From Clostridia bacterium (GTDB lineage Bacteria; UBA6262; WVXT01): 59,271 bases of DNA. The stretch is taken from the NCBI GenBank assembly GCA_009619095.1, contig WJOT01000080.1, positions 1-59,271 of the forward strand, written 5' to 3'. The notes under the pieces were generated by a model. The model was given only the letters and a program-made list of their open reading frames with translations. It did no database searches and was not told the DNA's origin. Each line of letters opens with the position of its first letter. Positions within the stretch are counted from its first letter, which is position 1. The position numbers and the translations under genes were made by a program. Shown one piece after another: positions 9,189 through 26,101 of this stretch.

Positions 9189-9953
9189 GTGTGCATTTAT
9201 CGCCTACCCCGAGGAGAGTCGATAATCCGGCCAGGCTCGCACTGTCCTAAGTGTGGAAAGCAAATAAAGTGGTATGACAATATACCATTAATAAGTTATG
9301 CTCTTCTCGGAGGAAAATGCCGTTACTGTGGGGAAAAGATATCTCTCCAGTATCCTTTGATAGAACTAATAACGGCATTTCTTTTCCTTCTTACCTATCA
9401 GAAGTTTCGAGGAGCCCCTTTTACAATATTAATTTTCCTTCTTTTAGTATTGTCTCTAATTATCGTTTCTGCAATAGATTTTCAAACCTATACCATCCCC
9501 AATAAATTCACCTATCCATTGATTATTCTCGGCCTGTTTTCTTCACCTTTCAATTCCTTTCTTAAAGAGTATAGTGGAATAATAATAAGTAGCTCCAGAC
9601 AGCTGTCTCTCATTGTCTCTTCTTTTCTGGGACTCCTTGTAGGCGGCGGTGTACTCTATTTGATTGCCTTATTAGGGAGAAAAATGTTTAAAAGAGAGGC
9701 TATGGGAGGTGGAGATATAAAGTTAATTTTTGGAGTAGGTGCTTTCCTGGGAGTGGCCAATGTACTCTGGGTAATATTTTTAGCAAGTCTCCTGGGTGCA
9801 GTAACCGGGGGTGTGTTGATAATTGCTGGTAAGTATAAAAAATTTCAGGAAGTTGCTTTTGGAACCTATATTTCTTTGGGGACAGTATTGGTTTTTCTGT
9901 TCCAGCCAGGACTTAATCGTATTTATATTGACTTAATTTCTATCTGTAAATGA
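9189..9953 (+). CDS. pilD: Prepilin peptidase / N-methyltransferase PilD (A24 family). The true N-terminus probably lies upstream.
   Basis: Zinc-ribbon CPKC...CRYC. Catalytic Asp motifs AIDFQT and GGGDIKL. Conserved TM1 (FFYFIIFILGLGFGSFAN) is encoded upstream of the first canonical start. Confidence 0.88.
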   Translation: MCIYRLPRGESIIRPGSHCPKCGKQIKWYDNIPLISYALLGGKCRYCGEKISLQYPLIELITAFLFLLTYQKFRGAPFTILIFLLLVLSLIIVSAIDFQTYTIPNKFTYPLIILGLFSSPFNSFLKEYSGIIISSSRQLSLIVSSFLGLLVGGGVLYLIALLGRKMFKREAMGGGDIKLIFGVGAFLGVANVLWVIFLASLLGAVTGGVLIIAGKYKKFQEVAFGTYISLGTVLVFLFQPGLNRIYIDLISICK

Positions 9954-10072: not shown

Positions 10073-10083
10073 AGAAAAGTTGT

Positions 10084-10113
10084 TGACAATTATTGTCTTT
10101 CTGGTGTATAATT
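10084..10113 (+). promoter_or_regulatory. Putative sigma70 promoter for pilMNOPQ
   Basis: TTGACA (10084-10089), an 18-nt spacer, then TATAAT (10108-10113). This lies 20 nt upstream of the pilM ATG region. Confidence 0.6.
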
Positions 10114-10132: not shown

Positions 10133-11242
10133 ATGGGACTATTTAGTAGTGGTAAAGAATTAGTAGGTATAGATGTTGGGACTCACTCCATTAAGCTCGT
10201 GGGATTGAAAGGAACCCCTGCCAGATGGAGTCTGGCTAAGTATGCCATTAGTGAAATTCCTGCGGGCTCTATCGAAGAGCTTTCTCCTGAAGAGAGAAAG
10301 GCAGTAATGACTTCTGCTCTAAAGAATATGCTCTCCACTACAAAAATAAGGACGAAAAAGGTTGCCACTTCGGTTTCTGGAAATGCGGTAATTGTTCGTT
10401 ATGTGAAATTTCCCCGAATGAGCCCTTCCGATTTGGAAAAGACCATCCAATTTGAAGCTGAACCTTACATTCCATTTGACATTCGTGAGGTCAATATAAG
10501 CACCCACATATTAGGCGACGTTATGGAAGAAGGACAACCAAAGATGGAGACAGTTCTGGTGGGAGCGAAAAAGGAACTTTTGCAAGAACGATCGGAGATT
10601 ATCGAGGGTGCGGGGTTAAAGCTTTTAATAATAGACGTAGATGCCTTTGCTTTAGAAAATGCTTATGAAATTACCAGAGATAAAGAACGTGCAGAGACGG
10701 TGATGTTGCTCAATCTGGGAGCGACAACATCCAACATTAATATTCTCGAAAATGGCATTTCAAAAATTGTGCGGGATATATTTATTGCGGGCAATAGCTT
10801 TACCAGGGCAATTCAGAAGAATTTGCAAGTCGAGTATCCAGAAGCAGAGAATCTAAAAAGGAAATATGGCTTGACTTTAACAGGCGCAGAAGAAGAATTG
10901 GAAAGTATAGCTGCCAAAGATGAAACAAAAGTCCAGGTTTCCACTATCCTGATGCCCCTTATCCGTGAACTTGTGGGAGAGGTTCGCAGGTCAATTGATT
11001 ATTACCAAGCGCAGACCGGGGGAGAAAAGAGCGTAGACAGGATTATGCTGAGTGGTGGTAGTTCGAAGTTAAATAACCTGGATAGATTTTTGAATGATGA
11101 ACTCGGGTTGCCGGTAGATATAAATAATCCTTTCCGGGGAATCGATACAACAAGAATCCCTGCTACAGATTGGCAGGAGCTGGCTCCTTTATTTGTTGTG
11201 GCTGTAGGGCTGGCTACCAGGCGCGAAGGGGACACCAGATAG
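10133..11242 (+). CDS. pilM: Type IV pilus assembly protein PilM (actin-like ATPase fold)
   Basis: 369 aa. N-terminal VGIDVGTHSIKLV phosphate-binding motif. Followed by pilN/O/P/Q. Confidence 0.9.
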   Translation: MGLFSSGKELVGIDVGTHSIKLVGLKGTPARWSLAKYAISEIPAGSIEELSPEERKAVMTSALKNMLSTTKIRTKKVATSVSGNAVIVRYVKFPRMSPSDLEKTIQFEAEPYIPFDIREVNISTHILGDVMEEGQPKMETVLVGAKKELLQERSEIIEGAGLKLLIIDVDAFALENAYEITRDKERAETVMLLNLGATTSNINILENGISKIVRDIFIAGNSFTRAIQKNLQVEYPEAENLKRKYGLTLTGAEEELESIAAKDETKVQVSTILMPLIRELVGEVRRSIDYYQAQTGGEKSVDRIMLSGGSSKLNNLDRFLNDELGLPVDINNPFRGIDTTRIPATDWQELAPLFVVAVGLATRREGDTR

Positions 11243-11247
11243 AAAGT

Positions 11248-11336
11248 GACAGAGCGATAGCTCTGTCTCAATGTAGGTAGTGTAGGGGTTTATCCCCGCC
11301 CCGATAAATCGGGGCGCCCATAAAGGGCTACACTAC
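11248..11336. repeat. Hairpin plus a 60-nt cloverleaf-like compound repeat
   Basis: gacagagc-gata-gctctgtc at 11248-11267. The 9-bp closing helix gtagtgtag/ctacactac (11277-11336) encloses three abutting hairpins. Confidence 0.85.
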
Positions 11337-11355
11337 ATTTAGAAGATATTAAAAG

Positions 11356-11904
11356 ATGATTAAGATTAACTTATTACCTAAAGAGGTAGAGAAGAAAGTT
11401 GCTCTGCGGGAGAAAAAGCTTCTACTTTCTATCATAGTTCTCCTGGTGGTAGGAGGATTTTTAGGATTATACTCCTTAAAGGTTGGACAATATACTCGCC
11501 TGAAGAAAAAAGCAAAAAGAGTGGAGAAGGAACTTAGCCTTTTAGAAACGATAGTTAAAAAAGTTGATGAAATAGAAAAGTCCAAAGAGGCTCTGGGTAA
11601 GAAATTAGATGTTATTCAGAGCTTGCTGGGAAATCGCGTGGTCTATCCCCAACTATTGGAGGATTTAGCAAGGATAGTTCCTTCCCGAGTATGGTTGGCC
11701 TCCTTACTGACCAAAAGCGAGTCTGATTTCTTAACTATTACCATTGAGGCTTCAGCTATAGATAATTATGCAATTGCCAATTTTATTACTAAATTAAGTG
11801 AGGATAAGAATTTTTCTAAAGTTGAACTGAGCAATATAACTACCAGAAAAGGGAAAGAAGAAGTAGCAATAAAAAATTTCGGCGTAACTTGCGAATACAG
11901 GTGA
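11356..11904 (+). CDS. pilN: Type IV pilus assembly protein PilN
   Basis: N-terminal MIKINLLP motif, then a single TM. 182 aa. Confidence 0.85.
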   Translation: MIKINLLPKEVEKKVALREKKLLLSIIVLLVVGGFLGLYSLKVGQYTRLKKKAKRVEKELSLLETIVKKVDEIEKSKEALGKKLDVIQSLLGNRVVYPQLLEDLARIVPSRVWLASLLTKSESDFLTITIEASAIDNYAIANFITKLSEDKNFSKVELSNITTRKGKEEVAIKNFGVTCEYR

Positions 11905-11933
11905 CCCCATTTTCTAATAAGTGAGACAATAAG

Positions 11934-12500
11934 ATGACAAAACAACAGAAGGTATTGTTGGGTGTTCTGGGAGTCTTAGTTTTTTTTATGTTCTATAAAT
12001 ATCTCTATGGTCCGCTGGGGCTTAAGTTGAAAAAGGTCAAGAATGAGTTGGCTACAAAGCAATCAAAACTTACACTCGCCAGAGCAAGAACAGGTCGTCT
12101 GGAACAGCTAAAAACTGATTATGAACTGCTCAGAGTTAAGGTGGCAGAAGCAGAGAAAAAGTTACCCAGAGAGAAGGAAATTCCTCGCCTGCTGCGAGAT
12201 ATAACCAGTGCTGGACGGAAGTTTAAGATTGATATTTCTGATTTCCGGCCGCGAGCAGAAAAACAGCAGGAATATTACATATCTCATCCTTTTCTAATAA
12301 CTCTGGAGACTAACTACCATAATTTAGCGCGCTTTCTGGCTGAAATAGGTCAATATGAGAGAATTTTTCATATTAAAAATTTAAGTGTAACACCAATACT
12401 GGAAGATGAAGAGAAACTGAAAGGCATTTCCACAGATTTTCAACTGTATACTTATACTTTTAAAGAAAAAGAAGAGGACGAAAAAGTAAAAAGTAAATGA
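11934..12500 (+). CDS. pilO: Type IV pilus assembly protein PilO
   Basis: 188 aa with a single N-terminal TM and a coiled-coil. Assigned by synteny between pilN and pilP. Confidence 0.8.
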   Translation: MTKQQKVLLGVLGVLVFFMFYKYLYGPLGLKLKKVKNELATKQSKLTLARARTGRLEQLKTDYELLRVKVAEAEKKLPREKEIPRLLRDITSAGRKFKIDISDFRPRAEKQQEYYISHPFLITLETNYHNLARFLAEIGQYERIFHIKNLSVTPILEDEEKLKGISTDFQLYTYTFKEKEEDEKVKSK

Positions 12501-12973
12501 ATAGTAAAATTGTTATAATTATTTTTATCCTGATTCTCCTGGGACTCAATGGTTGTCCTAAAAAAAAGGCCAGGCCAGTTTCCAGAAGACCCATAAAAGA
12601 GAAAGAGATTGTCCTGCCTAAAAAAATAGAAGAGAAAAAACGAGTCAGGTATACATATGGCGGTAAGAAGTATAAGGACCCATTTGCTCCTCCTGAGGAC
12701 ATGGGAGGAGGAATTGAAAGGGTTGGTAAAGGTGTAGAAATTGACCTGAGTAGATTGAAATTAACAGGAATTATGATTTCTCCTTCAGCCAAGGATAACT
12801 ATGCCCTGATTGATGCTGGTGGAGGAAGAGGATATGTAGTTAAAGGTGGAAAGCTAATAGATAATTACAATAGGGTTGTAGATGGTGTGGTGGCCATAGT
12901 GAGAAAAGATAAGGTAATTCTAATTACCCGTAATAATGTCATTCGAGAGCTTAGATTGAAAACTGAAAAATGA
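12497..12973 (+). CDS. pilP: Type IV pilus lipoprotein PilP-like
   Basis: Lipobox LLGLNGC. C-terminal beta-rich domain (LKLTGIMIS...YALID). Overlaps the pilO stop. Confidence 0.7.
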   Translation: MNSKIVIIIFILILLGLNGCPKKKARPVSRRPIKEKEIVLPKKIEEKKRVRYTYGGKKYKDPFAPPEDMGGGIERVGKGVEIDLSRLKLTGIMISPSAKDNYALIDAGGGRGYVVKGGKLIDNYNRVVDGVVAIVRKDKVILITRNNVIRELRLKTEK

Positions 12974-12996
12974 GAATTAAAAGAGGAGAATATCGA

Positions 12997-14823
12997 ATGA
13001 GAAAACTACTTTTTCCCAAGATAGTATTTATCTTAGTGTTAGGATTGGTCTGTTTTGTAAATGTTGGACCAGTTGCCCAAGAAGAAAATCCTGCTGTGCC
13101 TGAGTGGCAGGAATTGACCAATGTGAAAGTTCAGAAGATCAGCGAAACTAAATCGAACATTATCATTACTATTACGGGACCCATAAAATACCACTGTTTC
13201 AAGATTACTAATCCACCAAGGCTGGTAATAGAGATGACTAATACAGTTCACAACTGGAAACAGAAAGAGTTGGAAGTAGGCAATTTCTTACTTAAGAGAA
13301 TCCGTTCCGGTCAGTATCAGAATGAACCTATTAAAATAGCTCGCGTAGTTCTCGACTTAGAAAGACCAGTTGATTATGAGTCTACTGCCACTGAGAAACA
13401 GATTATCCTGACTATTTTTGGTAAAGGAACCATAGAAAAGGTAGAAAAAGAGGTGCCCAAAATAGTAAAAGTAGAAAGGGAGAAAAGGCCAAAGATAACA
13501 AAGAAAAAAATAATAAGGAAAAAAGGAATTGCACCAAACATTCAAGATGAAAAGCATAGAAGACTGGTAGAGAAGTTAAGAAAAGAGAAGAGGGAGAGAA
13601 AGTTGGCTAAACTGCCAATAGAGGAGAAGAAGAAAAGACTAGTAGCGATAGGAGAAGTAATGGGTCCAATCAGCCAGGAGCCAGTAAGTTTAGATTTTGT
13701 TGATGCTGACATATCACAAGTAATTCGCTTCTTTGCCTTGAAGACGAAGATGAATTTTGTCCTGGCTGAAGACGTTGAAGGGGAGGTCACCATTCACTTA
13801 CACAGCATACCTTTCGATGAAGCACTAAGAACTGTTCTGGATCAAAAAGGACTGATAGGAATTCAACATTCTGAAAATGTTATCAAGGTTGTAAACAAGA
13901 GCAAAATGCCCACTTATAGAAAGACATTTTCGCTGCAGAATAGAAATGCTTCAGAGGTCAAAGATACCATTGATACGTCATTAACAGAAGAAGAAAAGAA
14001 GTATACCACTGTTGGTATATCTGATGTTACTAACGCCTTAATTATAACTTCCACTGCGGAGGGTATAGAGAAGCTTTCCCAGCTCATTGAGGAATTGGAC
14101 ATCAAGATGCCTCAGATCAGAATTGTGGCAAGGATTATGGAAGTAGATATCAGTAAAGGTGTAGATCTGGGAATAGATTGGACCATGACTAAAACCTTTA
14201 CCGGCGGTGGTGCATTCGGTGATACAACGGTGACCGGAAATGTAGAAGATATGGCTTCTCCTTTTAGTTATGGAACGCCAGCAACCTTAAATATAGCTAC
14301 AATAATGAGCGGAGCAGATCTTGCTCTCACTTTAAAGGCTCTGGTAAAAAAGACCGATACAAGGACATTGTCTAAGCCCACCCTGGTGGTAGAGAACAAC
14401 CGTTCAGCACACATCCATGTGGGCGATTCGATACCTTATAAGGAAACTATAGTGACCGCGGCAGGAGTCACCGAGACCACGAAGCACCTGGAAATCGGAA
14501 CTACTCTTGATGTTACTCCTACAGTTAGCCCTACGGGTAATCAGATAAGTCTGGATGTTAACGTAGCAGTGAAAGACTTTGTGGGTTTTACTGTAGCGGG
14601 ACCACAAACCACAGACCGGGAGGCGACGACAAAAGTTACCATAACCGAAGGACAGACAGTGGTGATTGGTGGACTGATTAGTGAGACGGAAAAGGGAACG
14701 ATGTACCAGGTACCAATTTTAGGCGATATTCCCATTTTAGGTTACTTGTTTAAGAAGAAAGAGACACACAAGCGGACATTGGAACTTCTGATTTTCTTAA
14801 CCCCCCATGTCATGCGCCACTAA
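12997..14823 (+). CDS. pilQ: Type IV pilus secretin PilQ (AMIN domain, Lys-rich linker, secretin domain)
   Basis: ATG 12997 is preceded by AGAGGAG; the alternative start is 12970. Signal peptide MRKLLFPKIVFILVLGLVCF. Secretin C-terminal signature VPILGDIPILGYLFKKK. Confidence 0.88.
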   Translation: MRKLLFPKIVFILVLGLVCFVNVGPVAQEENPAVPEWQELTNVKVQKISETKSNIIITITGPIKYHCFKITNPPRLVIEMTNTVHNWKQKELEVGNFLLKRIRSGQYQNEPIKIARVVLDLERPVDYESTATEKQIILTIFGKGTIEKVEKEVPKIVKVEREKRPKITKKKIIRKKGIAPNIQDEKHRRLVEKLRKEKRERKLAKLPIEEKKKRLVAIGEVMGPISQEPVSLDFVDADISQVIRFFALKTKMNFVLAEDVEGEVTIHLHSIPFDEALRTVLDQKGLIGIQHSENVIKVVNKSKMPTYRKTFSLQNRNASEVKDTIDTSLTEEEKKYTTVGISDVTNALIITSTAEGIEKLSQLIEELDIKMPQIRIVARIMEVDISKGVDLGIDWTMTKTFTGGGAFGDTTVTGNVEDMASPFSYGTPATLNIATIMSGADLALTLKALVKKTDTRTLSKPTLVVENNRSAHIHVGDSIPYKETIVTAAGVTETTKHLEIGTTLDVTPTVSPTGNQISLDVNVAVKDFVGFTVAGPQTTDREATTKVTITEGQTVVIGGLISETEKGTMYQVPILGDIPILGYLFKKKETHKRTLELLIFLTPHVMRH

Positions 14824-14946: not shown

Positions 14947-16599
14947 ATGGATATTTGGGCGCTGACTCTTGTCTATCTCTTCTCTCTTTTTGCTCTCCTC
15001 CTTTATAGTATCCTCCTAATATGGTTTCCTCCAGCTACTTCAGAATCACAGACTTCCTTCCGCGTTCAGCTTAAGAGGCTTTCTTTTCCTCTGGTCCTCT
15101 TTTTGAGCATGGCTTACATCTCCTTTCTCTTTTCCACTAACAGATTCAATAGCAGAAACGAAATCTTCAATTTGCTCAATTACCTTTTTCTGTTTTATTT
15201 AGTAACTACTATAATAAAAAAGAAAGAGAGACAGAATTTAATTCGTTTAGTATTATTAGTAGGCATCTTTCTCTCGATAACCGGAATATACCAATTCATT
15301 AGAGGGAATGTAGCGGCCGGGACAATGGTTAATCCCAATATTTTGGCTGGATATTTAACAATGGTAATTCCATTTACGACAGGACTGATTCTCTCCTTGT
15401 CAAATTCGATTAACAGAGAATTCATCAAATCCCACTCTTTTTATTTAGTTGGTTGGTTATTAATGGTTGCTTGCTTATTCCTGACGAAATCCCCGGGAGG
15501 GATTATAGGAGTAATTTTGGGAATTTGTGTAATTCTCTATTTCAAGCATGGGAAGCAAATTTTTATTAAATTTCGATATATATTTATCGCTTTAGCTGTA
15601 GTTATCGTAGTTCTACTACTTTTTACACTCAGACAATTACAGGTTTATAATCGCCTCCTTTGCTGGTGGGGAGCATTGAGGATGATTTACCAACGTCCTC
15701 TAATAGGGGTTGGCCTTGGTGGGTTCGAAACCGCCTATGCCAGGTATAAGCTGACAGGCTTAAATCCATTATATGCTTATAACTATTTCTTGCAACTTAC
15801 AGCAGAGATGGGAGTTGTAGGATTGGGTGTTTTCCTCTGGTTCCTGTTTATGGTTGGGAAGCATATTAAATTTTTATCTAAGAGGTCGAAGCTTTCTTCT
15901 TTCGAAATCGGGGTATTGGGAAGTATTGTTGCCATATTGTTTAATAATCTTATCGATTATAATCTTTGTATTCCGGCGAATGCAATACTTTTCTGGGTTT
16001 TCTTGGGGCTATTAATTACTGGTCAGAATTCTTTGGAGTCCTCCCGAAAGGGAGGAAACTCGGCAGTCCCTAGACGCCGATTGGGGAAGACTAATAAACT
16101 ACTACTTACAGGAGTAATTACTTTTTCCATTCTTGGAGTGGGGGTAGGGATTACCAGACTATCTCTGGCAAATCGCCATTACCAGTTGGGTAAGCATCTT
16201 TTTGAGATTAGAAATTTAGAGAACTTAGTGAAAGTGGAAAAGGAGAATTTAGAGAAGGCAAAATTTGAATATGGGCGAGCTGTCGAATTGGACTCCTTGA
16301 ATTCCTGGTACCATCACGGACTTGCAGGGGTATATTTAGCCAGATACTGGAGAGAAGGATATTCGAGCTATTTGGATGAAGCAATAATTGAGTTGAGAGA
16401 AGCGGTTGAGCGGATGCCTTATTATGGACCATTTTACGCTAATCTCTCCTATGTGTACGAGATAAAGAAAAATTACAAGAAGGCTATTTTTTACATGGAA
16501 TCTGCCATAGCCTGCGACAGGCAAAATGACAATTACCGGCAAAGAATAAGCGAATTGGCGGGAAGAATGCAAACCAGGATAGATGTTGAGAATAATTAA
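14947..16599 (+). CDS. O-antigen ligase-like (Wzy_C) polytopic membrane protein fused to a C-terminal TPR domain
   Basis: About 10 or more TM segments. Wzy_C-like loop RPLIGVGLGGFETAY. A late TM is followed by TPR-like repeats (YHHGLAGVYL..., YANLSYVYEIKKNYKKAIFY). Confidence 0.75.
   Translation: MDIWALTLVYLFSLFALLLYSILLIWFPPATSESQTSFRVQLKRLSFPLVLFLSMAYISFLFSTNRFNSRNEIFNLLNYLFLFYLVTTIIKKKERQNLIRLVLLVGIFLSITGIYQFIRGNVAAGTMVNPNILAGYLTMVIPFTTGLILSLSNSINREFIKSHSFYLVGWLLMVACLFLTKSPGGIIGVILGICVILYFKHGKQIFIKFRYIFIALAVVIVVLLLFTLRQLQVYNRLLCWWGALRMIYQRPLIGVGLGGFETAYARYKLTGLNPLYAYNYFLQLTAEMGVVGLGVFLWFLFMVGKHIKFLSKRSKLSSFEIGVLGSIVAILFNNLIDYNLCIPANAILFWVFLGLLITGQNSLESSRKGGNSAVPRRRLGKTNKLLLTGVITFSILGVGVGITRLSLANRHYQLGKHLFEIRNLENLVKVEKENLEKAKFEYGRAVELDSLNSWYHHGLAGVYLARYWREGYSSYLDEAIIELREAVERMPYYGPFYANLSYVYEIKKNYKKAIFYMESAIACDRQNDNYRQRISELAGRMQTRIDVENN
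16033..16056 (+). repeat. Intragenic, in-frame copy of the family-F hairpin module
   Basis: ttggagtcctcccgaaagggagga is identical to intergenic 54154-54177. It is codon-aligned and encodes LESSRKGG in the linker between the Wzy_C domain and the TM/TPR domain. Confidence 0.85.
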
Positions 16600-18718
16600 T
16601 TTAGGTTTAATATTTATCTTTTTATATATCCCTTGGTTTAGTGGTGGAGAAAAGATATTTCCCCGTTCATTAATCCAGGCAATAATTCTTATTTTATCAA
16701 TTCTCTACTTAGCAAAAAGGAAAAATTTTAACTCTCTTTGGAAGAAATTCTACATCTCTCCTTCACTCCATTTTCCAATCGGTCTTATTCTATTCTTTTC
16801 CTTCTTTTCAGTAGTTAATTCCACATATCTACACAATTCCCTTCTCTCTTTTATAAAAATAGTCACTTTTGTTCTCTTCTATTTTCTCTTAGTAGAACAT
16901 TTAACGGATAAAGGCATATTGAGAGGAAATTATCTATTTAAAATAATTTTCGTTTCCGCTTCAATTCTTGCAGTCATTGGTCTATTCCAGTCTTTCTTTC
17001 ATTTAGAAATTAAAGCAACTCTTCCCACTCCTGACTTTTTAGCCGGTTACTTGGCAGCGGGAATAACCCTGGGAATAACTGAACTACTGACTTTTAGAAA
17101 GAGGAGTGGTCCAAATAACATTAATATAAACATTAAGAATATAATTAGCCAACATAGAGTTCCCTTCATCATTTATCTTATAGCTACACTTATAATGTCT
17201 ATATGCTTAGTCTTGACTCGCTCGTTAAGTGGAGTACTTGCTCTTTTAGCGGCAATCATATTTATAACGATTTTTCTATACAGGAAGAGGGCAGCATATA
17301 TAATCCTTACTCTCATAGGAATATTTCTAATCTTTCCTTATACGATGAAAGTTTTTCAATTGTTGGGAGGGGAAACTCTGAAGGAGTTCTTCCTCCAGAG
17401 ATTGGGAATTTGGAGTCGATGTCTGGAAGTAATCTCAGCACATCCATTCCTGGGAGTAGGCCCGGGAAACTTTGGTAATTTTCGGATTGCTTCTGGCTAT
17501 GGCACTTATACAAAATTTGCCTACAATGAGTATTTACAAATAGGTGCTGAACTGGGAATGATTGTAGTATTTCTCGTAAGTTCCATTTTTTACATAATGG
17601 TGAAGGGAGTAAAGAAATTATTAAAGAGTAATCTCTCTCTTAATTCTCAAGCTGAGGTGGTTTCTGCCTCGGCAGGCGCTTTAGCAGTATTAACCCAGGG
17701 CCTATTTTATTTCAATCTCCACCTTCCGGCAATAACCTGTATTTTACTCTTTTTTATAACAAAGATTATGGTTGATAATCATAAACTATTTCTATCCCGG
17801 ATTTCGTCTGACGAGCAATTCAGCTCGCTTTCTGACCTGCAAGCTCCCGGGTGGCTAAGAGTGACATCTATTTCTATTCTCTCAATTTTGTTTCTCCTCG
17901 TTTCAGTAAACTATCTTGGAAACCACTATGCATATAAGGGTGAATATAGGAAGGCCGTGAAACTTGTTCCTTTGAATGCTGAATACCATAAGGAATTGGC
18001 CGATTATTACAGGAAAGAAAAAAAACAGGATAGAACGATTTCAATTTATGGGAAGATTATAAAGTTACATCCTCAAGAAGCAGATTACCATGACCGGTTA
18101 GGCCATATGTACTATCGGCTTAAAGACACAGTAAGCGCTTTAAAGGAGTTTAAATTAGCAGTAAAGCATAACCCTTACAATCCGTTTTTCCGCTTTGCCC
18201 TGGGTTCTTACTATCTAGACCGCTGGGAATTTAAGAAAGCAAAGATAGAATATCAAAAAGCAGTTGATATAGAGCCATACTATCTATTAGCCCACTTGCG
18301 GTTGGGAGAGAGCCAATTGGGTTTAAAGGAGATTGCCAGAGCCAAGGAAGAATTCTACAAGGTCTTAAAGTTGAAAGGACTACTTCCCCAATTGGTCTTC
18401 TCAGGGAGAGATTATGAAAATAGATTATTTGAATTTGATTACTCTCGTGTTTATGTGGGTTTGGGAAGGTGCTGGATGGAGGAAGGGAATCTAATTCAAG
18501 CCATTGCTGAGTACAGAAAAGCCCTGAAATTGAATCGCTATTCTGTAGCTGCCCATAGCGGACTTGCCGATGTCTACTTTATCCAGAAGAGGTACGACTT
18601 AGCAACAGATGAGATTAAAAAGGCAATAAGACTGGCTCCTCAAAGTGAAGCCTATAAGATGAACCTCAAACTAATTGAGGAAGCCATCTCAGGAGGAGTC
18701 GAACTCCCCTCAGAATAA
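16583..18718 (+). CDS. Second O-antigen ligase-like (Wzy_C) membrane protein with a long C-terminal TPR domain
   Basis: 711 aa. Wzy_C-like loop HPFLGVGPGNFGNF. The C-terminal ~250 aa are TPR repeats. Overlaps the preceding paralog by 17 nt. Confidence 0.75.
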   Translation: MLRIINLGLIFIFLYIPWFSGGEKIFPRSLIQAIILILSILYLAKRKNFNSLWKKFYISPSLHFPIGLILFFSFFSVVNSTYLHNSLLSFIKIVTFVLFYFLLVEHLTDKGILRGNYLFKIIFVSASILAVIGLFQSFFHLEIKATLPTPDFLAGYLAAGITLGITELLTFRKRSGPNNININIKNIISQHRVPFIIYLIATLIMSICLVLTRSLSGVLALLAAIIFITIFLYRKRAAYIILTLIGIFLIFPYTMKVFQLLGGETLKEFFLQRLGIWSRCLEVISAHPFLGVGPGNFGNFRIASGYGTYTKFAYNEYLQIGAELGMIVVFLVSSIFYIMVKGVKKLLKSNLSLNSQAEVVSASAGALAVLTQGLFYFNLHLPAITCILLFFITKIMVDNHKLFLSRISSDEQFSSLSDLQAPGWLRVTSISILSILFLLVSVNYLGNHYAYKGEYRKAVKLVPLNAEYHKELADYYRKEKKQDRTISIYGKIIKLHPQEADYHDRLGHMYYRLKDTVSALKEFKLAVKHNPYNPFFRFALGSYYLDRWEFKKAKIEYQKAVDIEPYYLLAHLRLGESQLGLKEIARAKEEFYKVLKLKGLLPQLVFSGRDYENRLFEFDYSRVYVGLGRCWMEEGNLIQAIAEYRKALKLNRYSVAAHSGLADVYFIQKRYDLATDEIKKAIRLAPQSEAYKMNLKLIEEAISGGVELPSE

Positions 18719-18818: not shown

Positions 18819-18847
18819 TTGACAAAAGGGGAAAGTTATGATATACT
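18819..18847 (+). promoter_or_regulatory. Putative sigma70 promoter of the GbsR/MarR-type regulator gene
   Basis: TTGACA (18819-24), a 17-nt spacer, then TGaTATACT (18839-47). Confidence 0.6.
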
Positions 18848-18900: not shown

Positions 18901-19404
18901 ATGGAAAACCCTGAACTTGATAAAATAAGAGACGAATTCACAGAAATTGCTGGTCAGCTGGGTGTGCGCCTGGGACTTAGCCGCACTGTGGGCCAGCTAT
19001 ACGCATTGCTTTTCCTAAGTGATGAGCCACTCTGTCTCGATTACATGGTGGAAAGATTAAAAATAAGCAAGGGGAGCGCAAGTACAAATATTCGGGAATT
19101 GGAAAAATGGGGTGGGGTGAGAAAGGTATGGGTGAAGGGTTCCCGAAAGGATTTTTATGAGGCAAACCCTGATACCTTGAAAATAGTAATTAACAGGTTT
19201 AAAAGCGGCATACAGGAAAGAGTAAATGAAATGTCAGGAGGAATAGATAAATTTGAGAAAGCCTTATCTAAGATAGAAAACAGCCTTTCTGTAGAGGAGA
19301 AAAAGAAGGCTCAGTTCTACAAAGAGAAATTCAGAAAAGTGAAGAAAATGCAAACTCTGATCAATACCTTTTTGAAAATCATCCCCAAGAAAATTTTCCT
19401 ATGA
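18901..19404 (+). CDS. Winged-helix transcriptional regulator, GbsR/MarR-like
   Basis: 167 aa. GLSRTVGQLYALLFLSDEPLCLDYMVERLKISKGSASTNIRELEKWG resembles the GbsR/MarR wHTH core. Confidence 0.7.
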   Translation: MENPELDKIRDEFTEIAGQLGVRLGLSRTVGQLYALLFLSDEPLCLDYMVERLKISKGSASTNIRELEKWGGVRKVWVKGSRKDFYEANPDTLKIVINRFKSGIQERVNEMSGGIDKFEKALSKIENSLSVEEKKKAQFYKEKFRKVKKMQTLINTFLKIIPKKIFL

Positions 19405-19524: not shown

Positions 19525-20670
19525 ATGAAAATAGGAGTCTGCATGATTAGTGCATATTTTCCTCCAGTCGTTGGGGGAACCGAAATACAAACTTTGAGGC
19601 TGGCCAGGGCATTAATCGCTCGAAATGTAAATCCTTTTGTTATTACCGAAAGGTTAAAAGGACTGAAGAGATTTGAAAAGGTAGATGGGGTTCCAGTTTA
19701 TAGATTGTTCACTTTGGGTTTGGGAACTGTTGCTTCCTTGTCATTTATGTTTTCATCATTTCTTTTCCTGATGAAAAATCGAAGGAAATACCAGATTATC
19801 CATGCCCATTTAGCGTCTTCCCCGGCAATTACAGCAGCAATTGCAGGCAAACTGCTGAGAAAGAAGGTTATCGTGAAATTTGGGCGCTCCGGGAAAGTAG
19901 GAGATATCCAAACTTCCGATAGAACTTGTCTTGGAAGGGCCAAACTCAAAATTCTAATGAAATATGGTGACGTTTTCGTTTGTCCCAGTGAGGAAGTGAA
20001 GAGGGAATCAATAGACTATGGATTTGCTAAAAGGAAGGTAGTAAAGATTCCCAATGGTGTAGATACAGCCCTTTTTCATCCAGTCGACGACCTACAAAAA
20101 CAGGACTTGAAGAGACGCTTCAATTTTCCATCACTCCCAATTCTCATCTACTCGGGGAGGCTCGAGTCGGTTAAAGGACTGGCAGTATTATTCATGGCCT
20201 GGCAAATAGTCATAAAATCTGAAAAAGAAGGTTACCTGCTTATTATAGGCAATGGTTCTCAGAAAGGTAGCTTGATTAGTTTAGCCAAGGAGTTAAAAAT
20301 TATTGAATCTATAAAATTTACTGGTCAAGTTGATAATGTCAATGAATACCTTCAAACTGGTAATGGCTTTGTCTTTCCTTCAACTGCGGAAGGATTATCT
20401 AATGCACTGCTGGAAGCAATGGCTTCAGAACTGCCGATTGTAGCCACCAAGATAGGTGGCACAGAAGAAGTAATTGAGAATAAAAAGAATGGATTCTTAG
20501 TTGAACCGGGCAAAGTGCACCAATTTGCAGAAGGAATAATAACATTACTAAGCCAGCCTGAAGTTGGTCATAAATTGGGCCGAGAGGCAAGGCGGACAAT
20601 TGAAGAAAATTACTCCATAGGTATGGTAGCCCAGAAGCATGTACAATTATATGAGGAAATGATTAAATGA
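19525..20670 (+). CDS. Glycosyltransferase family 4 (GT-B fold)
   Basis: 381 aa. N-terminal YFPPVVGGTEIQ. C-terminal EX7E region PSTAEGLSNALLEAMASELPIVATKIGG. Confidence 0.85.
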   Translation: MKIGVCMISAYFPPVVGGTEIQTLRLARALIARNVNPFVITERLKGLKRFEKVDGVPVYRLFTLGLGTVASLSFMFSSFLFLMKNRRKYQIIHAHLASSPAITAAIAGKLLRKKVIVKFGRSGKVGDIQTSDRTCLGRAKLKILMKYGDVFVCPSEEVKRESIDYGFAKRKVVKIPNGVDTALFHPVDDLQKQDLKRRFNFPSLPILIYSGRLESVKGLAVLFMAWQIVIKSEKEGYLLIIGNGSQKGSLISLAKELKIIESIKFTGQVDNVNEYLQTGNGFVFPSTAEGLSNALLEAMASELPIVATKIGGTEEVIENKKNGFLVEPGKVHQFAEGIITLLSQPEVGHKLGREARRTIEENYSIGMVAQKHVQLYEEMIK

Positions 20671-20876
20671 GATTTGCGTTGGTAGACCACGATACCAATT
20701 ATTTCACAAAACCAGAACAATTGGAAAATGTATACGAAAAAATCTGGGATAAAATACCGATATGTTTATCAAATTTAAAGAAGGTAGGAGAGACCGCGCG
20801 AATGAAGATATCAGACAATTTTTTTATTTCCCGAATTATTTCCTTCTATATTCAGGAGGTTTATTTTGGGACTTAA
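20667..20876 (+). pseudogene. Probable relic of a GT4 glycosyltransferase C-terminus (69-codon ORF)
   Basis: VGETARMKISDNFFISRIISFYIQEVY resembles the terminal helix region of the intact GT4 genes in this window. It has no N-terminal domain. Confidence 0.45.
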
Positions 20877-22440
20877 AATTGTCAGCACAAATTTAAAGAT
20901 AGCAAAAGCAGCATTAATTTTGATAGTTGCAAGTACTTGCGGGCATATACTAAGTTTAGGAAAGGAAATCCTTGTTGCAAATTATTTTGGAATTACAAAG
21001 GTTATGGATGCTTTTTATGCAGCAATTACTGTTCCAAATTTAATAAATAGTGTTCTATTATCAACATTTGGAGCTGTTTTTATTCCTATATTTATTAGGT
21101 ATAAACTTAAAGACAAAAGTGAAGCAAATCATATTTCTTCAGTAATCACAAATTATCTTTTTATTTTTTTTATCTTTGCGTCTTTATTTCTTTATATTTT
21201 TGCTCCCTGGATTATCAGATTTGGTTTCCATGGTTTAAAACCAGAGACTATTAATTTAGCAATAAAGATGTTGCGTATAGTCTGCTTTACCCTTATTTTA
21301 AGTGGGCTGATAGGGATTATGGCTGGCATTCTTAATGCTTTTGAGCATTTTGCTTGGCCGGCTTTTTCTCAGATGTTTATTACAATTAGCACAATTTTGT
21401 TTATTTTATTCTTTGTAAAACAGCTGAACATTTTTACCCTTATTTATGGATTACTTGTAGGTTTAATTCTGCAATTCCTTTTCTTAATTCCTATTACAAG
21501 GGGAAAAGGGTATCATCATTACTTTGATTTTAACCGGAAACACCCGGCAATAAAAGAAATGATATCCTTAGGTTTTATTTTTTTCATAGCTATTATTGCC
21601 TCTCAATTGAATATCGTTGTTGACAGAATTATGGCCTCTTATCTTGCTCCCGGGAGTATCGCTGCTCTCGGCTATGCAGGAAAACTTGTTCAGGTTCCTT
21701 TGGTGATTTTTTCTTCATCTATTGCTATTGTAGTTTTCCCGTTCTTTTCATCTCAGGTTGCTGAAAACAAAATTGAAGAACTGAAGGATTCTGTTACCAA
21801 AAGCATAAGGATGTCTGGCTTTATCTTTATACCCTTAACTGTGATCTTAGTTATTCTTGCTAAACCGGTAATAAAGCTCTTATTCGAGAGGGGAATGTTT
21901 GATTCTCATGCAACATATTTAACCTCAGTAATTCTCATATGCTATTCTTTTCAATTTTTCTTTTATACAGTAGGAATGATTCTGGGAAGAGTATTTCTTG
22001 CTTTACAGGATATGATAACCCTTTTAAAGATAACTATCGTCGGAGTAATAATGAACATAATCTTAAATTTCGTTTTTATAAAAGCTATCAACCCTCCCGC
22101 TGCCGGAATTGCTCTTTCTACCTCGGGAATATATTTAATAACGATGTTTCTCCTTTTTGCCTTTTTAAAAAAGAAAATGATTTATTTGGATGAAAAATAC
22201 ATCTTAAAAGGGTTAGTTAAGATAGGTTTAAGTTCTATTATTATGGGGTTAGGAATTTTCTGGATATTTAACATTTTTCAAAAGTTTATTAATTTGGGTT
22301 CAATCCTAGGGCAGATGTTTTTTTTACTAATCGTAGTTTTTATATGGTTGGCTATATATATTAAGGTATCTTCCAGTTTGAAGTTATCTGAGGTAAGTAA
22401 GATCAAAGAATTAATTTATGTTAAATTCTGGAAGGGGTAA
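20866..22440 (+). CDS. murJ: MurJ/MviN-family (MOP superfamily) lipid-linked glycan flippase
   Basis: 524 aa with about 14 TM segments. N-terminal GKEILVANYFGITKVMDAFYAAITVPNLI matches the MurJ signature region. TTG start. Confidence 0.7.
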   Translation: MGLKIVSTNLKIAKAALILIVASTCGHILSLGKEILVANYFGITKVMDAFYAAITVPNLINSVLLSTFGAVFIPIFIRYKLKDKSEANHISSVITNYLFIFFIFASLFLYIFAPWIIRFGFHGLKPETINLAIKMLRIVCFTLILSGLIGIMAGILNAFEHFAWPAFSQMFITISTILFILFFVKQLNIFTLIYGLLVGLILQFLFLIPITRGKGYHHYFDFNRKHPAIKEMISLGFIFFIAIIASQLNIVVDRIMASYLAPGSIAALGYAGKLVQVPLVIFSSSIAIVVFPFFSSQVAENKIEELKDSVTKSIRMSGFIFIPLTVILVILAKPVIKLLFERGMFDSHATYLTSVILICYSFQFFFYTVGMILGRVFLALQDMITLLKITIVGVIMNIILNFVFIKAINPPAAGIALSTSGIYLITMFLLFAFLKKKMIYLDEKYILKGLVKIGLSSIIMGLGIFWIFNIFQKFINLGSILGQMFFLLIVVFIWLAIYIKVSSSLKLSEVSKIKELIYVKFWKG

Positions 22441-22466
22441 ATATTTACAAATTTTAATAAAGATTT

Positions 22467-23990
22467 TTGTCAGAATGTGAAAAGAGGGGAAAAATTGTGA
22501 TTAAGAAGAAAAACGTCATTTTATTTTATCCTAAATTTACACCTAAATCTCGAAATTGCCTTCCAATTAGCCTATTGGCATTGGCGAGGATGGTCAATCA
22601 AGACAAATATAACTTAGTTATTATTAACGCCACAACTGATGAGAGCTATTTAGAGAAAGCTGTTAAATACACTCAAGAAGCTCTTTGCTTTGGAGTATCC
22701 ACCATAGCTGGATACCAGATTATTGACGCTCTGAAAGTATCTCAGGCTGTAAAGAAAAATAATCCTTCCCTCCCCATTATTTGGGGAGGATATTGGCCAA
22801 GTTCGGCACCAAAAGAAACTTTAAGTAATCCTTATGTCGATATCGTGGTTAAGGGACAAGGAGAAATTGCTTTTAAGGAGCTTCTTTTTCACATAGAGGA
22901 AGATAAATCTTTAGAAGGAGTATCAGGTATATTTTACAAGACAAAAAATGGAAAAATTGTAGAAAACCCAAACAGGACATTACAAGATATTAACCAATTT
23001 CCGTCATTACCATATAATTTAGTGGATGCAAACCGATGTATCCGCTACCATTTCTTATGGGGACCTTCTCTTGATTATTATACTTCTCAGGGGTGTCCGT
23101 ATAATTGCAAGTTTTGTGCAGAACCGATATTTTCGGGTAGGAAATGGACTGGTCTAACTCCAGAAAGAGTGGTTAAAGATGTAGAGTATTTGGTAAATTC
23201 TTACCAAATCGATTCCATTCGCCTTGTTGACCCTGAAGTTCTTATCAATAAGAAGAGAATTTTGGAAATCTGCAAAAAAATTATTGAGAAAAAAATAAAG
23301 GTAAATTTTACAACTGTTGATACTAGAGTAGATACTTTGATGTCTTATAGTGATGAGGAATGGAAACTGATGGAAACAGCAGGAATACACGAGTTTTCAA
23401 TTGGAATTGAATCTGGAAGTAACCAAGCCTTAAAAGCAATTGGGAAGAATTTCGCGGTTGAGGATATAATCGCTCTCTTTGAGCGTATGAGAAATTATGA
23501 TTTTAAAAGTTACTTAAGTATTATGGTAGGAATACCTAGCATAGATATAAAAAAAGAATTTTTAGCAACTTGGAAATTAGTAGATATGATCCTAAAGAAA
23601 TATCGCTCTTTAATCTCTACGATGTCCGTTGTAAATTATACTCCTTATCCAGGAACGGAGTTATATAACCAAGCAATTAAAGAAGGATTTATCCCTCCTA
23701 AAAATTTGGTCAATTGGGGTTATGTAGATCATTATAGTCTGTATCCTTGCCCTTGGAGGCCAATGAAGTATCAAAAAGCTGTTAATTATATTGACTTGTA
23801 TGTTTTGCCGTATTTTTTTGAACCTGCTCCACAAAAGACTATATTTCATAGGATATTTTATGGTATTCTAAAAAATATATATCGAATCCGATGGAAATAT
23901 CGCTGGTTTAATTTATTTTTTGAAAAGCGTTTGCTTGATGCTATTAACAAGAGGTATCTTAGGAGGATACCTAAAAGTAAAAAAATGTAA
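22467..23990 (+). CDS. B12-binding-domain radical SAM protein
   Basis: N-terminal Rossmann-like B12 domain, then the CPYNCKFC CX3CX2C cluster motif. The alternative GTG start at 22497 is preceded by AAGAGGGGA. Confidence 0.8.
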   Translation: MSECEKRGKIVIKKKNVILFYPKFTPKSRNCLPISLLALARMVNQDKYNLVIINATTDESYLEKAVKYTQEALCFGVSTIAGYQIIDALKVSQAVKKNNPSLPIIWGGYWPSSAPKETLSNPYVDIVVKGQGEIAFKELLFHIEEDKSLEGVSGIFYKTKNGKIVENPNRTLQDINQFPSLPYNLVDANRCIRYHFLWGPSLDYYTSQGCPYNCKFCAEPIFSGRKWTGLTPERVVKDVEYLVNSYQIDSIRLVDPEVLINKKRILEICKKIIEKKIKVNFTTVDTRVDTLMSYSDEEWKLMETAGIHEFSIGIESGSNQALKAIGKNFAVEDIIALFERMRNYDFKSYLSIMVGIPSIDIKKEFLATWKLVDMILKKYRSLISTMSVVNYTPYPGTELYNQAIKEGFIPPKNLVNWGYVDHYSLYPCPWRPMKYQKAVNYIDLYVLPYFFEPAPQKTIFHRIFYGILKNIYRIRWKYRWFNLFFEKRLLDAINKRYLRRIPKSKKM

Positions 23991-23999
23991 GAGGGAAAA

Positions 24000-24950
24000 G
24001 TGAAAAATAGATTATTAAAACTCCTTTGCTGCCCTAAATGTAAAGCGGATTTAGGTATACGTAAATCCAAAAGTGCAAAGAGTGAAATTGAAAGCGGCAT
24101 TTTGCATTGTCCCGTTTGTCAAAGGGAATATCAAATCATAAATTTTATCCCTCGGTTTGTTTCAACGGATAAATATGTGGAAAGTTTCAGTTTTGAGTGG
24201 AAAATTCATAAAAAAACGCAGTTAGACAGCGCAACAGGAAAGACAGAATCCAAGGTTACATTTATACAAAAGATCGGTACTAAAGTTGAAAACTTGAGAA
24301 ATAAGATTGTTCTGGATGTGGGTTGTGGAATGGGACGATTCATGGAAGTAGTTCAGCCCTATGCAAAGGAAGTAATAGGAATAGATTTATCCTTTGCTGT
24401 AGATTCTGCACATGAAAATCTAAAAAAGTTTGATAATGTTCATTTTATACAGGCTGATGTTTTTAACCTTCCGCTCAAAAATAATACGTTTGATTATATT
24501 TACAGCATAGGCGTTTTACACCATACTCCTGACACTAAGAGAGCATTTATGAAGCTTCCATGTATTTTGAAAAGCGGAGGAGAAATTGCTATCTGGGTTT
24601 ATTCTGACGAAACAGGTTATACACGAATCAGAAATAGGTTTACTGATTTTTATAGAATTTTTACTACTCATCTGCCAAAGAAATTATTGTGGTATTTGTC
24701 TCATTTGGCGATTCCCTTTTACTACTGTAAAAAAATTTCAAAAGTTGGAGCTTTTCTCGACCTTGTTTTTCCTACGAGCAATCATCCTGTTATCGAGTGG
24801 CGTGTACTTGATACGTTTGATTGGTATTCGCCAAAATATCAGCGCAAGCATACTCGGGATGAGGTTATTAACTGGTTTAAGGAAGCCGGGCTAAAAGATA
24901 TCGAAGCGTCAGATTTTCCAGTAGCAGTTAAGGGTAGGAAACGAAAATGA
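24000..24950 (+). CDS. Class I SAM-dependent methyltransferase with an N-terminal Trm112-like zinc ribbon
   Basis: CPKC...CPVC ribbon. Motif I is VLDVGCGMGRF. GTG start. Confidence 0.8.
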   Translation: MKNRLLKLLCCPKCKADLGIRKSKSAKSEIESGILHCPVCQREYQIINFIPRFVSTDKYVESFSFEWKIHKKTQLDSATGKTESKVTFIQKIGTKVENLRNKIVLDVGCGMGRFMEVVQPYAKEVIGIDLSFAVDSAHENLKKFDNVHFIQADVFNLPLKNNTFDYIYSIGVLHHTPDTKRAFMKLPCILKSGGEIAIWVYSDETGYTRIRNRFTDFYRIFTTHLPKKLLWYLSHLAIPFYYCKKISKVGAFLDLVFPTSNHPVIEWRVLDTFDWYSPKYQRKHTRDEVINWFKEAGLKDIEASDFPVAVKGRKRK

Positions 24951-26101
24951 ATTTTAGAATCTGCATGATATGTTCTCAATTTTATCCTGTTATTGGTGGG
25001 ACAGAACAACAAGCAGAAGCATTAGCAAGGGAGTTGTTAAAAGAGGGAGCAAAAGTGTTTGTTCTTACTCAGAGGATAAAGGGCCTAAGAAGAAGAGAGA
25101 ACTTGAATGGAGTGATAGTATATAGAGATATAATTGCTCCTCAGTGGGGACTTATTTTTGGATTGAGTTATTTATTAACAACTTTTATATTTCTATTGAG
25201 AAAAAGAAAAGAATATGATGTAATTCACTGTCATATTCTTTATCTTCATACCGTATCAGCAATATTAGTTAAGAAGTTATTAAAGAAAAAAGTTGTTGTT
25301 AAAATTGCTGGCATTAGTAAATTTGGAATCGGAGATATTGTAAGAATTAAAGAAATAAAGGGGTCAAAGATTATATTGGGAATAAGTAGAGGTGTTGATA
25401 GATTTATTGCTATTAGCAGAGAAATGAGAAATGAATTGAGAGAAATCGGTGTCAAAGAGGAACAAATCCTTGATATTCCGAATTTTGTGAACACTGAGAA
25501 ATTTTACCCTATTTCAAATGGAAAACGAAACGAACTACGAAATGAGCTTTTTTTGCCAATAGATAAAAAAATTATTTCTTTTGTCGGTCGTCTTTATATA
25601 GAAAAGGGGATTTCCTATTTGATTGAGGCGTGGTCTGAAATCATTATCGCATATCCTGAAGTAGCTTTGTTAATTATCGGGGATGGGCCTCTGATGAAAA
25701 GTTTAAAAGATCAGGCAAGGGCTTTAAATTTATCGGATAAGATAGAATTTTTAGGAAAGAAAGAGAATATTTCTGAATATCTTCAGGCGAGTGACATATT
25801 TGTTTTACCCTCGCTTTCAGAAGGGCTGTCCGGTGCGCTTTTGGAGGCAATGGCTTGTGGGCTTCCTTGTATAGCAACAAAGATTGGAGGTAATGTTGAC
25901 TTAACTGATGATGGTAAAGATGGAATTTTAGTAGAACCAGCAAGTAGTGAAGAACTCGCATCTGCTATATTGAGGTTATTAAAGGATAAAGAATCTTCTA
26001 AAAATATAGGTAATCAGGCGAGAAAGAAAATCTTAGAACGGTATTCAATAAATTCTATAGTTCCAGCTTATATAAATTTATACAAGGGACTCTTAAGCTA
26101 A
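24947..26101 (+). CDS. Glycosyltransferase family 4
   Basis: FYPVIGGTEQQ at the N-terminus. PSLSEGLSGALLEAMACGLPCIATKIGG is the EX7E region. Confidence 0.85.
   Translation: MNFRICMICSQFYPVIGGTEQQAEALARELLKEGAKVFVLTQRIKGLRRRENLNGVIVYRDIIAPQWGLIFGLSYLLTTFIFLLRKRKEYDVIHCHILYLHTVSAILVKKLLKKKVVVKIAGISKFGIGDIVRIKEIKGSKIILGISRGVDRFIAISREMRNELREIGVKEEQILDIPNFVNTEKFYPISNGKRNELRNELFLPIDKKIISFVGRLYIEKGISYLIEAWSEIIIAYPEVALLIIGDGPLMKSLKDQARALNLSDKIEFLGKKENISEYLQASDIFVLPSLSEGLSGALLEAMACGLPCIATKIGGNVDLTDDGKDGILVEPASSEELASAILRLLKDKESSKNIGNQARKKILERYSINSIVPAYINLYKGLLS

Follow-up and report, generated by a model that had tools for sequence, protein, structure and literature searches.

What are two large membrane proteins of the O-antigen ligase kind doing directly behind the genes of a type IV pilus? 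The question is posed by a 59,271-nt stretch of DNA (contig WJOT01000080.1, deposited as 'Clostridia bacterium' and here called the window), in which two genes, designated ORF A (14947-16599) and ORF B (16583-18718), follow pilMNOPQ on the same strand and encode proteins that combine a Wzy_C domain with tetratricopeptide repeats (TPR). A reading of the sequence alone had proposed that they are protein-directed oligosaccharyltransferases (OTases). We give about an even chance to the view that the two proteins form a protein-directed, most likely pilin-directed, OTase system using the neighbouring glycan cluster, because of their predicted WaaL-like fold, an extra transmembrane (TM) segment and periplasmic domain, the TPR repeats, the pil-embedded and in places pilin-adjacent genes, and the indifference of the pair to the content of the glycan cluster. 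What is said here about the function of A and B is drawn from sequence, models and gene order.

A Wzy_C pair embedded among type IV pilus genes

Open reading frames (ORFs), Pfam, BLASTP and AlphaFold agree on two tandem Wzy_C-TPR paralogues of 550 and 711 residues after pilMNOPQ, on the same strand, as the sequence-only reading had described. Our synteny sample comprised 81 related loci with a Wzy_C ORF (L-numbers denote such loci and P-numbers related protein entries). pilQ or pilD is a same-strand neighbour of the Wzy_C gene within 1 kb in 26 of the 81 loci, most of these labelled Elusimicrobia, and within 5 kb in 35, which bears out the co-occurrence with pil clusters that the earlier reading had suggested surveying. 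Close relatives (79-95% identity) keep the order pilD-pilMNOPQ-A-B-MarR, and linkage to pil genes is still seen where B is only about 25% and PilQ about 30% identical. The position within the cluster varies. The Wzy_C gene stands after pilQ in most loci, in the order pilA-pilD-Wzy_C-pilM in L038, L041, L042 and L054, and, as a Wzy_C(-TPR) gene, directly 3' of the gene for the major pilin in L016, L033 and L051; in L033 pilA is followed by an A-like and then a B-like gene. The same closeness of enzyme gene and pilin or substrate gene is reported for TfpO, TfpM, PglS and most PglL homologues (PMC3643930, PMC12645811).

Of the evidence considered here, adjacency to pil genes that outlasts such reshuffling speaks most strongly for a functional link with the pilus. 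In Elusimicrobia the genes of the Wzy_C pair form part of the type IVa pilus cluster, and comparison of the loci favours a pilus-linked role for the family. The literature searched yielded nothing relevant on genes of the Wzy_C or O-antigen-ligase type, whether in pil operons or in Elusimicrobia, nor on conserved pil-cluster embedding across these related, mostly Elusimicrobia, loci, on the A/B pairing or its fused form, or on lineage-specific replacement of Wzy_C catalytic residues in A and B.

The window belongs to the Elusimicrobia lineage. A 96%-identical fragment carries this label, and the deeper relatives in a species-level genome collection are mostly labelled Elusimicrobia as well. 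Metagenome-assembled genome (MAG) records named 'Clostridia bacterium' (L005, L006, L008, L009, L011, L012, L024 and L035) hold loci at most 95% identical to the window or with the Elusimicrobia-type pil/Wzy_C layout, and their taxonomic labels look unreliable.

A and B are paralogues by sequence, with 24% identity over 520 aa in BLASTP (E 9e-21), and the start of B overlaps the end of A by 17 nt. In the related loci an A-like gene (product about 500-590 aa, short-tailed) comes first and a B-like gene (about 650-730 aa, with a long TPR domain) second, the two forming an adjacent pair in most. Outside Elusimicrobia both modules are found in one ORF of 1,049-1,174 aa, the A-like part first, then the B-like part and a single C-terminal TPR domain (L043, L045 at 9398-12673 with 1,091 aa, L046, L049, L053, L055, L057 and L058); the MAGs that carry such ORFs are labelled FCPU426, Firestonebacteria, Spirochaetia or Methylomirabilis, or are bacterial MAGs with no label. 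Because these Rosetta-stone fusions join an A-like to a B-like module, A and B probably act as one unit and not as two independent enzymes, and the comparison portrays A-like and B-like proteins as an ancient obligate pair.

Architecture, topology and known relatives

Both proteins match the Pfam Wzy_C family above its gathering cut-off of 31.7 bits, A at residues 171-297 (E 3.7e-12, 46.7 bits) and B at residues 201-331 (17183..17575; E 3.3e-14, 53.4 bits). Pfam TPR matches are strong in B (about residues 450-692) and slightly below threshold in A (484-527). Hydropathy finds 12 TM segments in A and 13 in B. The Wzy_C loop (59-70 residues) is preceded by eight of these in A or nine in B and is followed by three TM segments, one further TM segment and the TPR tail, which is 148 aa long in A and 268 aa long in B. 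The extra TM segment between the Wzy_C part and the TPR, already noted in the earlier reading, is thus seen in hydropathy and in the models alike.

Topology was predicted from hydropathy, loop parity and the positive-inside rule. When the Wzy_C loop is placed in the periplasm, where WaaL has it, the numbers of Lys and Arg per loop obey this rule. The last cytoplasmic loop of A has seven Lys or Arg against one Asp or Glu; that of B is less decisive, and the side of the B tail was assigned by parity. The orientation check proposed with the sequence-only reading accordingly places the TPR tails of both proteins on the predicted periplasmic side and not in the cytoplasm.

The AlphaFold models have a pLDDT of 84.9 for A, with three TPR repeats, and 81.8 for B, with about six repeats and a cap. 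Compared with PDB structures, the A model has as its top match 7TPG (7TPG_B; E 3.2e-4, 387 aligned columns, TM-score 0.50 on the target), and a profile of 19 B-like TM domains run against PDB sequences matches 7TPG/7TPJ only (E 2.7e-14), so that the fold expected earlier for the Wzy_C part is the one recovered. Single-sequence PDB searches returned TPR proteins only. The top 50 Foldseek hits of the B model were all TPR structures, with no WaaL-type match among them, and because of this the WaaL fold of B rests on the profile match together with paralogy with A. A full-length phmmer search with B against 1.84 billion representatives was dominated by generic TPR proteins, about 25 of the top 150 hits being full-length relatives. 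The A model and the B-like profile portray both proteins as WaaL-like in fold, and both features of the Wzy_C superfamily (PF04932, GT-C_B fold) are found: the Pfam match and a polytopic WaaL-like fold with a large loop, predicted periplasmic, towards the C-terminus.

The annotated ATG of A is probably not the ancestral start. Upstream of it, 19 in-frame codons (VIYVILCLILIFSPLARAS, 14890-14946) encode an extra TM helix, TM0, whose protein sequence is retained in L001, L005, L006, L007, P0026 and P0044, most of the changes there being synonymous; with this conserved helix included, the TM count of A becomes 13. The codon at 14947 is ATG, GTG, CTG or TGG among orthologues, and the window has no ATG, GTG or TTG between the TAG at 14833 and 14947. 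Either a non-canonical upstream start is used or a recent shift of the start codon has removed TM0. pilQ and A share a reading frame; readthrough from PilQ into A was considered and rejected as topologically implausible.

The closest solved relative is WaaL of Cupriavidus metallidurans (CmWaaL; PDB 7TPG/7TPJ; CAZy GT121), which shares its fold and periplasmic Wzy_C loop with A and B. WaaL has 12 TM segments and no extra C-terminal periplasmic domain (PMC10920833), whereas A and B add a TM helix and a TPR domain, lie in a pilus operon instead of a lipopolysaccharide (LPS) core cluster and form an obligate pair. The closest functional analogues, compared by description, are PglL, PglS, TfpO (PilO) and TfpM of the same superfamily, whose genes often adjoin the cognate pilin gene, as in L016, L033 and L051. 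PglS has 13 TM segments and a periplasmic C-terminal domain (PMC12800693); A and B have this general plan, but their domain is TPR and not of the PglS type. IctB, a cyanobacterial O-antigen-ligase-like protein, is the best NCBIfam match of A (TIGR00947; 88.5 bits across almost all of the TM domain, far below the cut-off of 366) and shares the NPN(L/I) motif with it (PMC4594306), but has no TPR and no pilus context; B matches only generic TPR families in NCBIfam.

That no Wzy_C-TPR protein had been characterised, as the sequence-only reading believed, is contradicted by WsfB, the S-layer O-oligosaccharyl:protein transferase of Paenibacillus alvei, in which Wzy_C is joined to a C-terminal TPR motif; in Geobacillus stearothermophilus the TPR part is a protein of its own, WsaA, whose gene lies upstream of that for the Wzy_C protein WsaB (PMC2943079; bioRxiv 10.1101/2020.05.20.105809). 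The architecture itself is not unprecedented. By description, WsfB has the same domain combination as A and B, and the split WsaA/WsaB genes parallel L051 (9971-12038), where the Wzy_C part and the TPR part are separate ORFs. These systems differ from A and B in serving tyrosine glycosylation of Gram-positive S-layers, with no pilus link and no second Wzy_C module. The same design logic as in A and B, a membrane glycosyltransferase with a periplasmic TPR in a pilin locus, is found in TfpW of Pseudomonas aeruginosa group IV, a polytopic pilin arabinosyltransferase whose gene lies in the pilin locus and whose C-terminus carries a large periplasmic TPR domain (bioRxiv 10.1101/2020.04.19.049825); TfpW, however, is an ArnT/Emb-like GT-C enzyme with a DDX motif and a polyprenyl-P-monosaccharide donor, not of the Wzy_C/WaaL-type fold.

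Proposed donor and acceptor, and the active site

In the mechanism that we favour, A and B would be two modules of one conserved machine of the WaaL/PglL superfamily (Wzy_C, GT-C_B fold). Oligosaccharides linked to undecaprenyl pyrophosphate (Und-PP) would be made by the adjacent, exchangeable glycan cluster, flipped to the periplasmic face and bound in the Wzy_C loop site; the oligosaccharide would then be handed over en bloc to an acceptor protein (pilin prior to assembly being the likeliest) held by the periplasmic TPR domain on its extra C-terminal TM helix. The B-like protein would be the canonical catalytic module, and the A-like protein, which lacks one Und-PP-binding Arg across related loci, its partner module.

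The likely source of the donor glycan is the cluster that follows the MarR-like gene, where the approximately 25 kb of glycan genes reported earlier measure 24.8 kb. It encodes five GT4 glycosyltransferases, a MurJ-like flippase, two B12-radical-SAM enzymes, two methyltransferases, an AsnB-type amidotransferase, two PMT_2 proteins with a GT2, a sugar dehydrogenase, epimerases and a WecA/MraY-type initiating transferase. In most loci such a cluster lies behind the pair, and the content changes: the L001 copies of A and B are 79% and 81% identical to those of the window and are accompanied by unrelated glycan genes, and the genes after MarR, likewise unrelated in L002, are common only to L007. 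Such conservation across swapped clusters fits the relaxed glycan specificity of a ligase or OTase, as in PglL, PglS, TfpO and TfpM with their Und-PP-glycans, and not a Wzy polymerase.

The candidate acceptor is the only type IVa prepilin of the window. Its mature form of 130 residues is rich in Ala (18.5%), as the sequence-only reading had said, but not in Ser, of which it has three besides nine Thr. The major pilins of the window, L008, L009, L016, L038, L040, L041, L051, L054 and L065 nearly all end in Ser/Thr-(x)-Trp, as 'TSW', 'SSW', 'TTW' or 'HSW' and as 'NTW' in the window; this end is often preceded by 'TDTK', a motif lost from the window pilin. A conserved hydroxyl residue next to the C-terminus is a possible acceptor site. 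In the pilin of P. aeruginosa 1244, the C-terminal Ser is the acceptor.

The active site of the window proteins departs from that of the family. In WaaL two Arg bind the Und-PP phosphates and one His has been proposed as the activator of the acceptor (PMC10920833); R215, R288 and H338 are required in Escherichia coli WaaL and their equivalents are conserved in PglL (PMC3643930), and TfpM H286A is inactive (PMC9829042). We took the residue roles from these papers and from PMC12800693, and the equivalence of columns from a profile alignment of B-like TM domains (n = 19), in which the 'SR(G)' Arg corresponds to CmWaaL R191, the loop Arg of 'R...IW' to R265 and the 'AHN' His to H313. Among 59 B-like relatives the first Arg is present in 50, the loop Arg in 56 and the AHN His in 53, and a DFNLHLP motif keeps its Asp in 48 and its His in 50; most B-like orthologues therefore have the two Arg and the His of WaaL. 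Of 29 A-like relatives only three have the first Arg, while all 29 have the loop Arg and 25 the AHN His; the HLP His is almost always missing. In the window R191 has become Pro in A and Leu in B, and the His (H349 of PglL, H286 of TfpM) is Tyr in both; B has also replaced the DFNLHLP Asp (Table 1). Loss in B was stepwise: in L003 (57% identity) the Arg and Asp are gone and the His is kept, and in the clade of at least 73% identity all three are gone. In A, His and Tyr toggle among close orthologues. Elsewhere the catalytic-His position of B-like proteins holds Leu (L051), Met (P0192) or Asn (P0009).

A sequencing error at the Tyr codons was rejected, the same residues being found in several independent assemblies, as was a pseudogene reading, given a dN/dS of 0.2-0.3 for both genes. 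Loop and TPR are both constrained, and the periplasmic loop of B is its best-conserved part in its clade (84-100% identical). By these substitution patterns A and B are under purifying selection, and the window proteins would either work with a changed active site or be retained chiefly for binding or as scaffolds.

Several of these observations weigh against a pilin-directed OTase. The His needed in WaaL, PglL and TfpM and the first of the two Und-PP-binding Arg are absent from both window proteins, and their catalytic competence is uncertain. Neither A nor B has a Pfam match at E <= 0.1 to PglL_A or Wzy_C_2, the domains that flank Wzy_C in PglL and PglS (PMC3643930, PMC12645811) and from which the two proteins differ further in their TPR domain and two-module layout; TfpO and TfpM are likewise without both domains (PMC12645811). 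The window pilin offers only three Ser, and its gene lies 8.3 kb upstream of A and B in the same pil cluster. The fused homologues do not adjoin pil genes, the L045 fusion having aroQ upstream and a gene for a YfhO-like GT-C downstream, and because of these fused forms the two-Wzy_C module is not restricted to pili. (In L045 and L049 an ORF of 762-766 aa follows the fusion in the same operon; the L045 copy is YfhO/PTPS_related-like.) That glycan clusters also follow the pair leaves room for an LPS link, and the case for pilin glycosylation is put together from gene order and similarity. Of the original OTase proposal, then, the fold, the TPR side, the pil linkage and the independence from swapped glycan clusters speak in its favour, and the replaced catalytic residues of the window copies do not. 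The probability would be higher for the canonical orthologues than for the window genes.

A ligase for LPS or another lipid acceptor is unlikely. A and/or B, possibly as a polymerase and ligase pair, would load the product of the cluster onto lipid A-core, and the pil linkage would reflect a mere super-locus for surface structures. The only solved relative is WaaL, database names read 'O-antigen ligase family protein', glycan clusters lie 3' of the pair in most loci, no Wzy_C gene besides A and B was found in the 59-kb window, and the fusions outside Elusimicrobia are not beside pil genes; yet the Wzy_C genes take up different places among the pil genes (behind pilA, behind pilQ, or between pilD and pilM) and remain pil-adjacent regardless of the glycan genes, the extra TM segment and periplasmic TPR follow the plan of O-OTases and not the 12-TM plan of WaaL (PMC10920833, PMC12800693), and the window copies lack the WaaL His and one Arg.

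The missing residues could also point to a non-catalytic accessory of the pilus, at least in the window lineage, in which a degenerate Wzy_C part would serve as an anchor or bind lipid-linked glycan and the TPR would dock PilQ, PilP, pilins or peptidoglycan, helping pilus assembly. We regard such pseudo-ligases as distinctly unlikely, since the canonical Arg, His and Asp are present in most B-like orthologues, and within its clade B is best conserved in the periplasmic loop. The stepwise losses in that clade, the His/Tyr toggle of A, the sporadic loss of His in L051 and P0192, the selection on both genes, TPR included, and their place in the operon of the PilMNOPQ alignment/secretin subcomplex are what speaks for this alternative; the TPR of B also resembles, below threshold, PilW, PilF and Tgl, TPR proteins of the pilotin type, but TPR-to-TPR matches are generic.

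Wzy-type polymerases, assembling repeat units of an O-antigen or exopolysaccharide from the adjacent cluster, are very unlikely. Wzy proteins are extremely divergent between serotypes (PMC10920833), and A and B, about 80% identical across unrelated glycan genes, therefore argue against this role, which would leave the pil linkage unexplained; among the window ORFs scanned with Pfam, none is a Wzz/PCP or OPX partner. What the idea has in its favour is that Pfam Wzy_C covers polymerases too (PMC4594306), that a separate Wzy was not detected in the glycan cluster (19525-44305), and that retaining polymerase families tend to conserve Tyr and Arg/Lys instead of His (PMC10920833). There is the slightest probability of all for two independent O-OTases with two acceptor classes, the meaning that the sequence-only reading had given to the two copies, for despite their deep divergence at 24% identity and their unequal TPR domains (three against about six repeats), A-like and B-like genes are adjacent in most loci, overlap by 17 nt in the window and are fused elsewhere with one shared TPR, and A-like proteins nearly always lack one Und-PP-binding Arg.

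Surrounding genes and implications

The window reads recG, coaD, pilB, pilT, pilC, prepilin, ABC ATPase, ABC-2 permease, TPR protein, pilD, pilMNOPQ, A and B, followed by the MarR-like gene, the glycan genes to 44305, leuC/leuD and housekeeping genes, all on one strand (Table 1). Promoter and terminator calls are matches to consensus patterns. The perfect sigma-70 consensus at 10083 is the likely promoter of a pilMNOPQ-A-B unit, and the hairpins after B likely end it. A pattern scan of the 123-nt gap between pilQ and A found no promoter-like or terminator-like site. Because of this consensus, the site-free gap, and the hairpins and new promoter-like site after B, pilMNOPQ-A-B looks like one transcription unit and the glycan genes like a separate one.

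Table 1. Positions of the features of the window treated in the text
Feature	Position	Strand	Remarks
ORF A	14947..16599	+	550 aa; A-like Wzy_C (predicted WaaL-fold) membrane protein, extra C-terminal TM, three-repeat predicted-periplasmic TPR tail
A Pro183	15493-15495	+	replaces the first Und-PP-binding Arg
A Wzy_C loop, predicted periplasmic	15631..15807	+	residues 229-287
A Arg236	15652-15654	+	retained loop Arg
A Tyr278	15778-15780	+	catalytic-His position
A tail after last predicted TM, predicted periplasmic	16153..16596	+	residues 403-550; last long helix to residue 418 in the model, then three TPR
ORF B	16583..18718	+	711 aa; B-like Wzy_C membrane protein, 13 TM, about six predicted-periplasmic TPR repeats
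B Leu215	17225-17227	+	family Arg position (CmWaaL R191)
B Arg273	17399-17401	+	retained (CmWaaL R265)
B Tyr314	17522-17524	+	family His position (CmWaaL H313)
B 'YFNLH' form of the DFNLHLP motif	17708..17722	+	Tyr376 for the conserved Asp; invariant His380 retained
B TM13 and TPR domain	17849..18691	+	TM13 residues 423-451; TPR about 452-703
Type IVa prepilin	6212..6634	+	cleavage between KSKG and FTLIELM; only one in the window; C-terminus ...VNTW
PilD prepilin peptidase	9189..9953	+	
Sigma-70 consensus TTGACA-18-TATAAT	10083..10112	+	perfect match, ahead of pilM
pilM, pilN, pilO, pilP, pilQ	10133..14823	+	PilP lipoprotein, lipobox LNGC; PilQ secretin
Two GC-rich hairpins after B	18730-18747 and 18769-18792	+	candidate transcription-unit end
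Promoter-like site TTGACA-17-TATACT with TG	18819..18847	+	ahead of the MarR-like gene
MarR/GbsR-like regulator	18901..19404	+	own promoter-like site
Variable glycan-building cluster	19525..44305	+	24.8 kb

The MarR/GbsR-like regulator, which may control the glycan cluster, is encoded directly 3' of B in L001-L007 (78-98%) and also in L022, L025 and L026 (43-48%); in many deeper Elusimicrobia loci it recurs a few kb from the pair. Within the glycan cluster, the two B12-binding radical-SAM enzymes and two SAM methyltransferases lie at 22467-36290, and the MurJ-like protein (20866-22440) is the sole flippase candidate. Two ArnT-like PMT_2 membrane proteins (29392-30522 and 31931-33220) flank the small GT2 (31242-31934), a set that is the hallmark of modification in the periplasm with polyprenyl-P-sugars as donors. 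The genes at 6739-9069, which separate pilD from the pilin gene and encode the ABC ATPase, the ABC-2 permease and a membrane-anchored TPR protein, are conserved with the pil genes in L001; we take this arrangement to resemble pilGHI of Myxococcus (M. xanthus). A gene for a DUF559 (Vsr-like endonuclease) protein (45764-46153) is inserted between leuC (44302-45612) and leuD (46200-46697).

Bacterial O-OTases are used for making bioconjugate vaccines, and to our knowledge only four classes have been characterised (PglL, PglS, TfpO and TfpM), all from Proteobacteria. Were the pair an LPS ligase, the finding would be ordinary. A bolder proposal, which the comparisons make possible and which we put forward as doubtful, is that Elusimicrobia have a new two-module pilin glycosylation machine, with an Arg-deficient A and a canonical B coupled through TPR to PilMNOPQ, and that the window lineage has turned it into either a new catalytic solution or a structural pseudo-enzyme. 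If pilin-directed glycosylation by A and B is true, the lineage-wide Wzy_C-TPR pair of the pilus operon would be a fifth kind of O-OTase, with a built-in protein-recognition domain and a natural fused form, from an uncultured phylum, and would offer a first way into pilus glycosylation in Elusimicrobia. That one lineage has lost the 'essential' His, Arg and Asp while purifying selection goes on would then be a natural experiment on what a Wzy_C active site needs.

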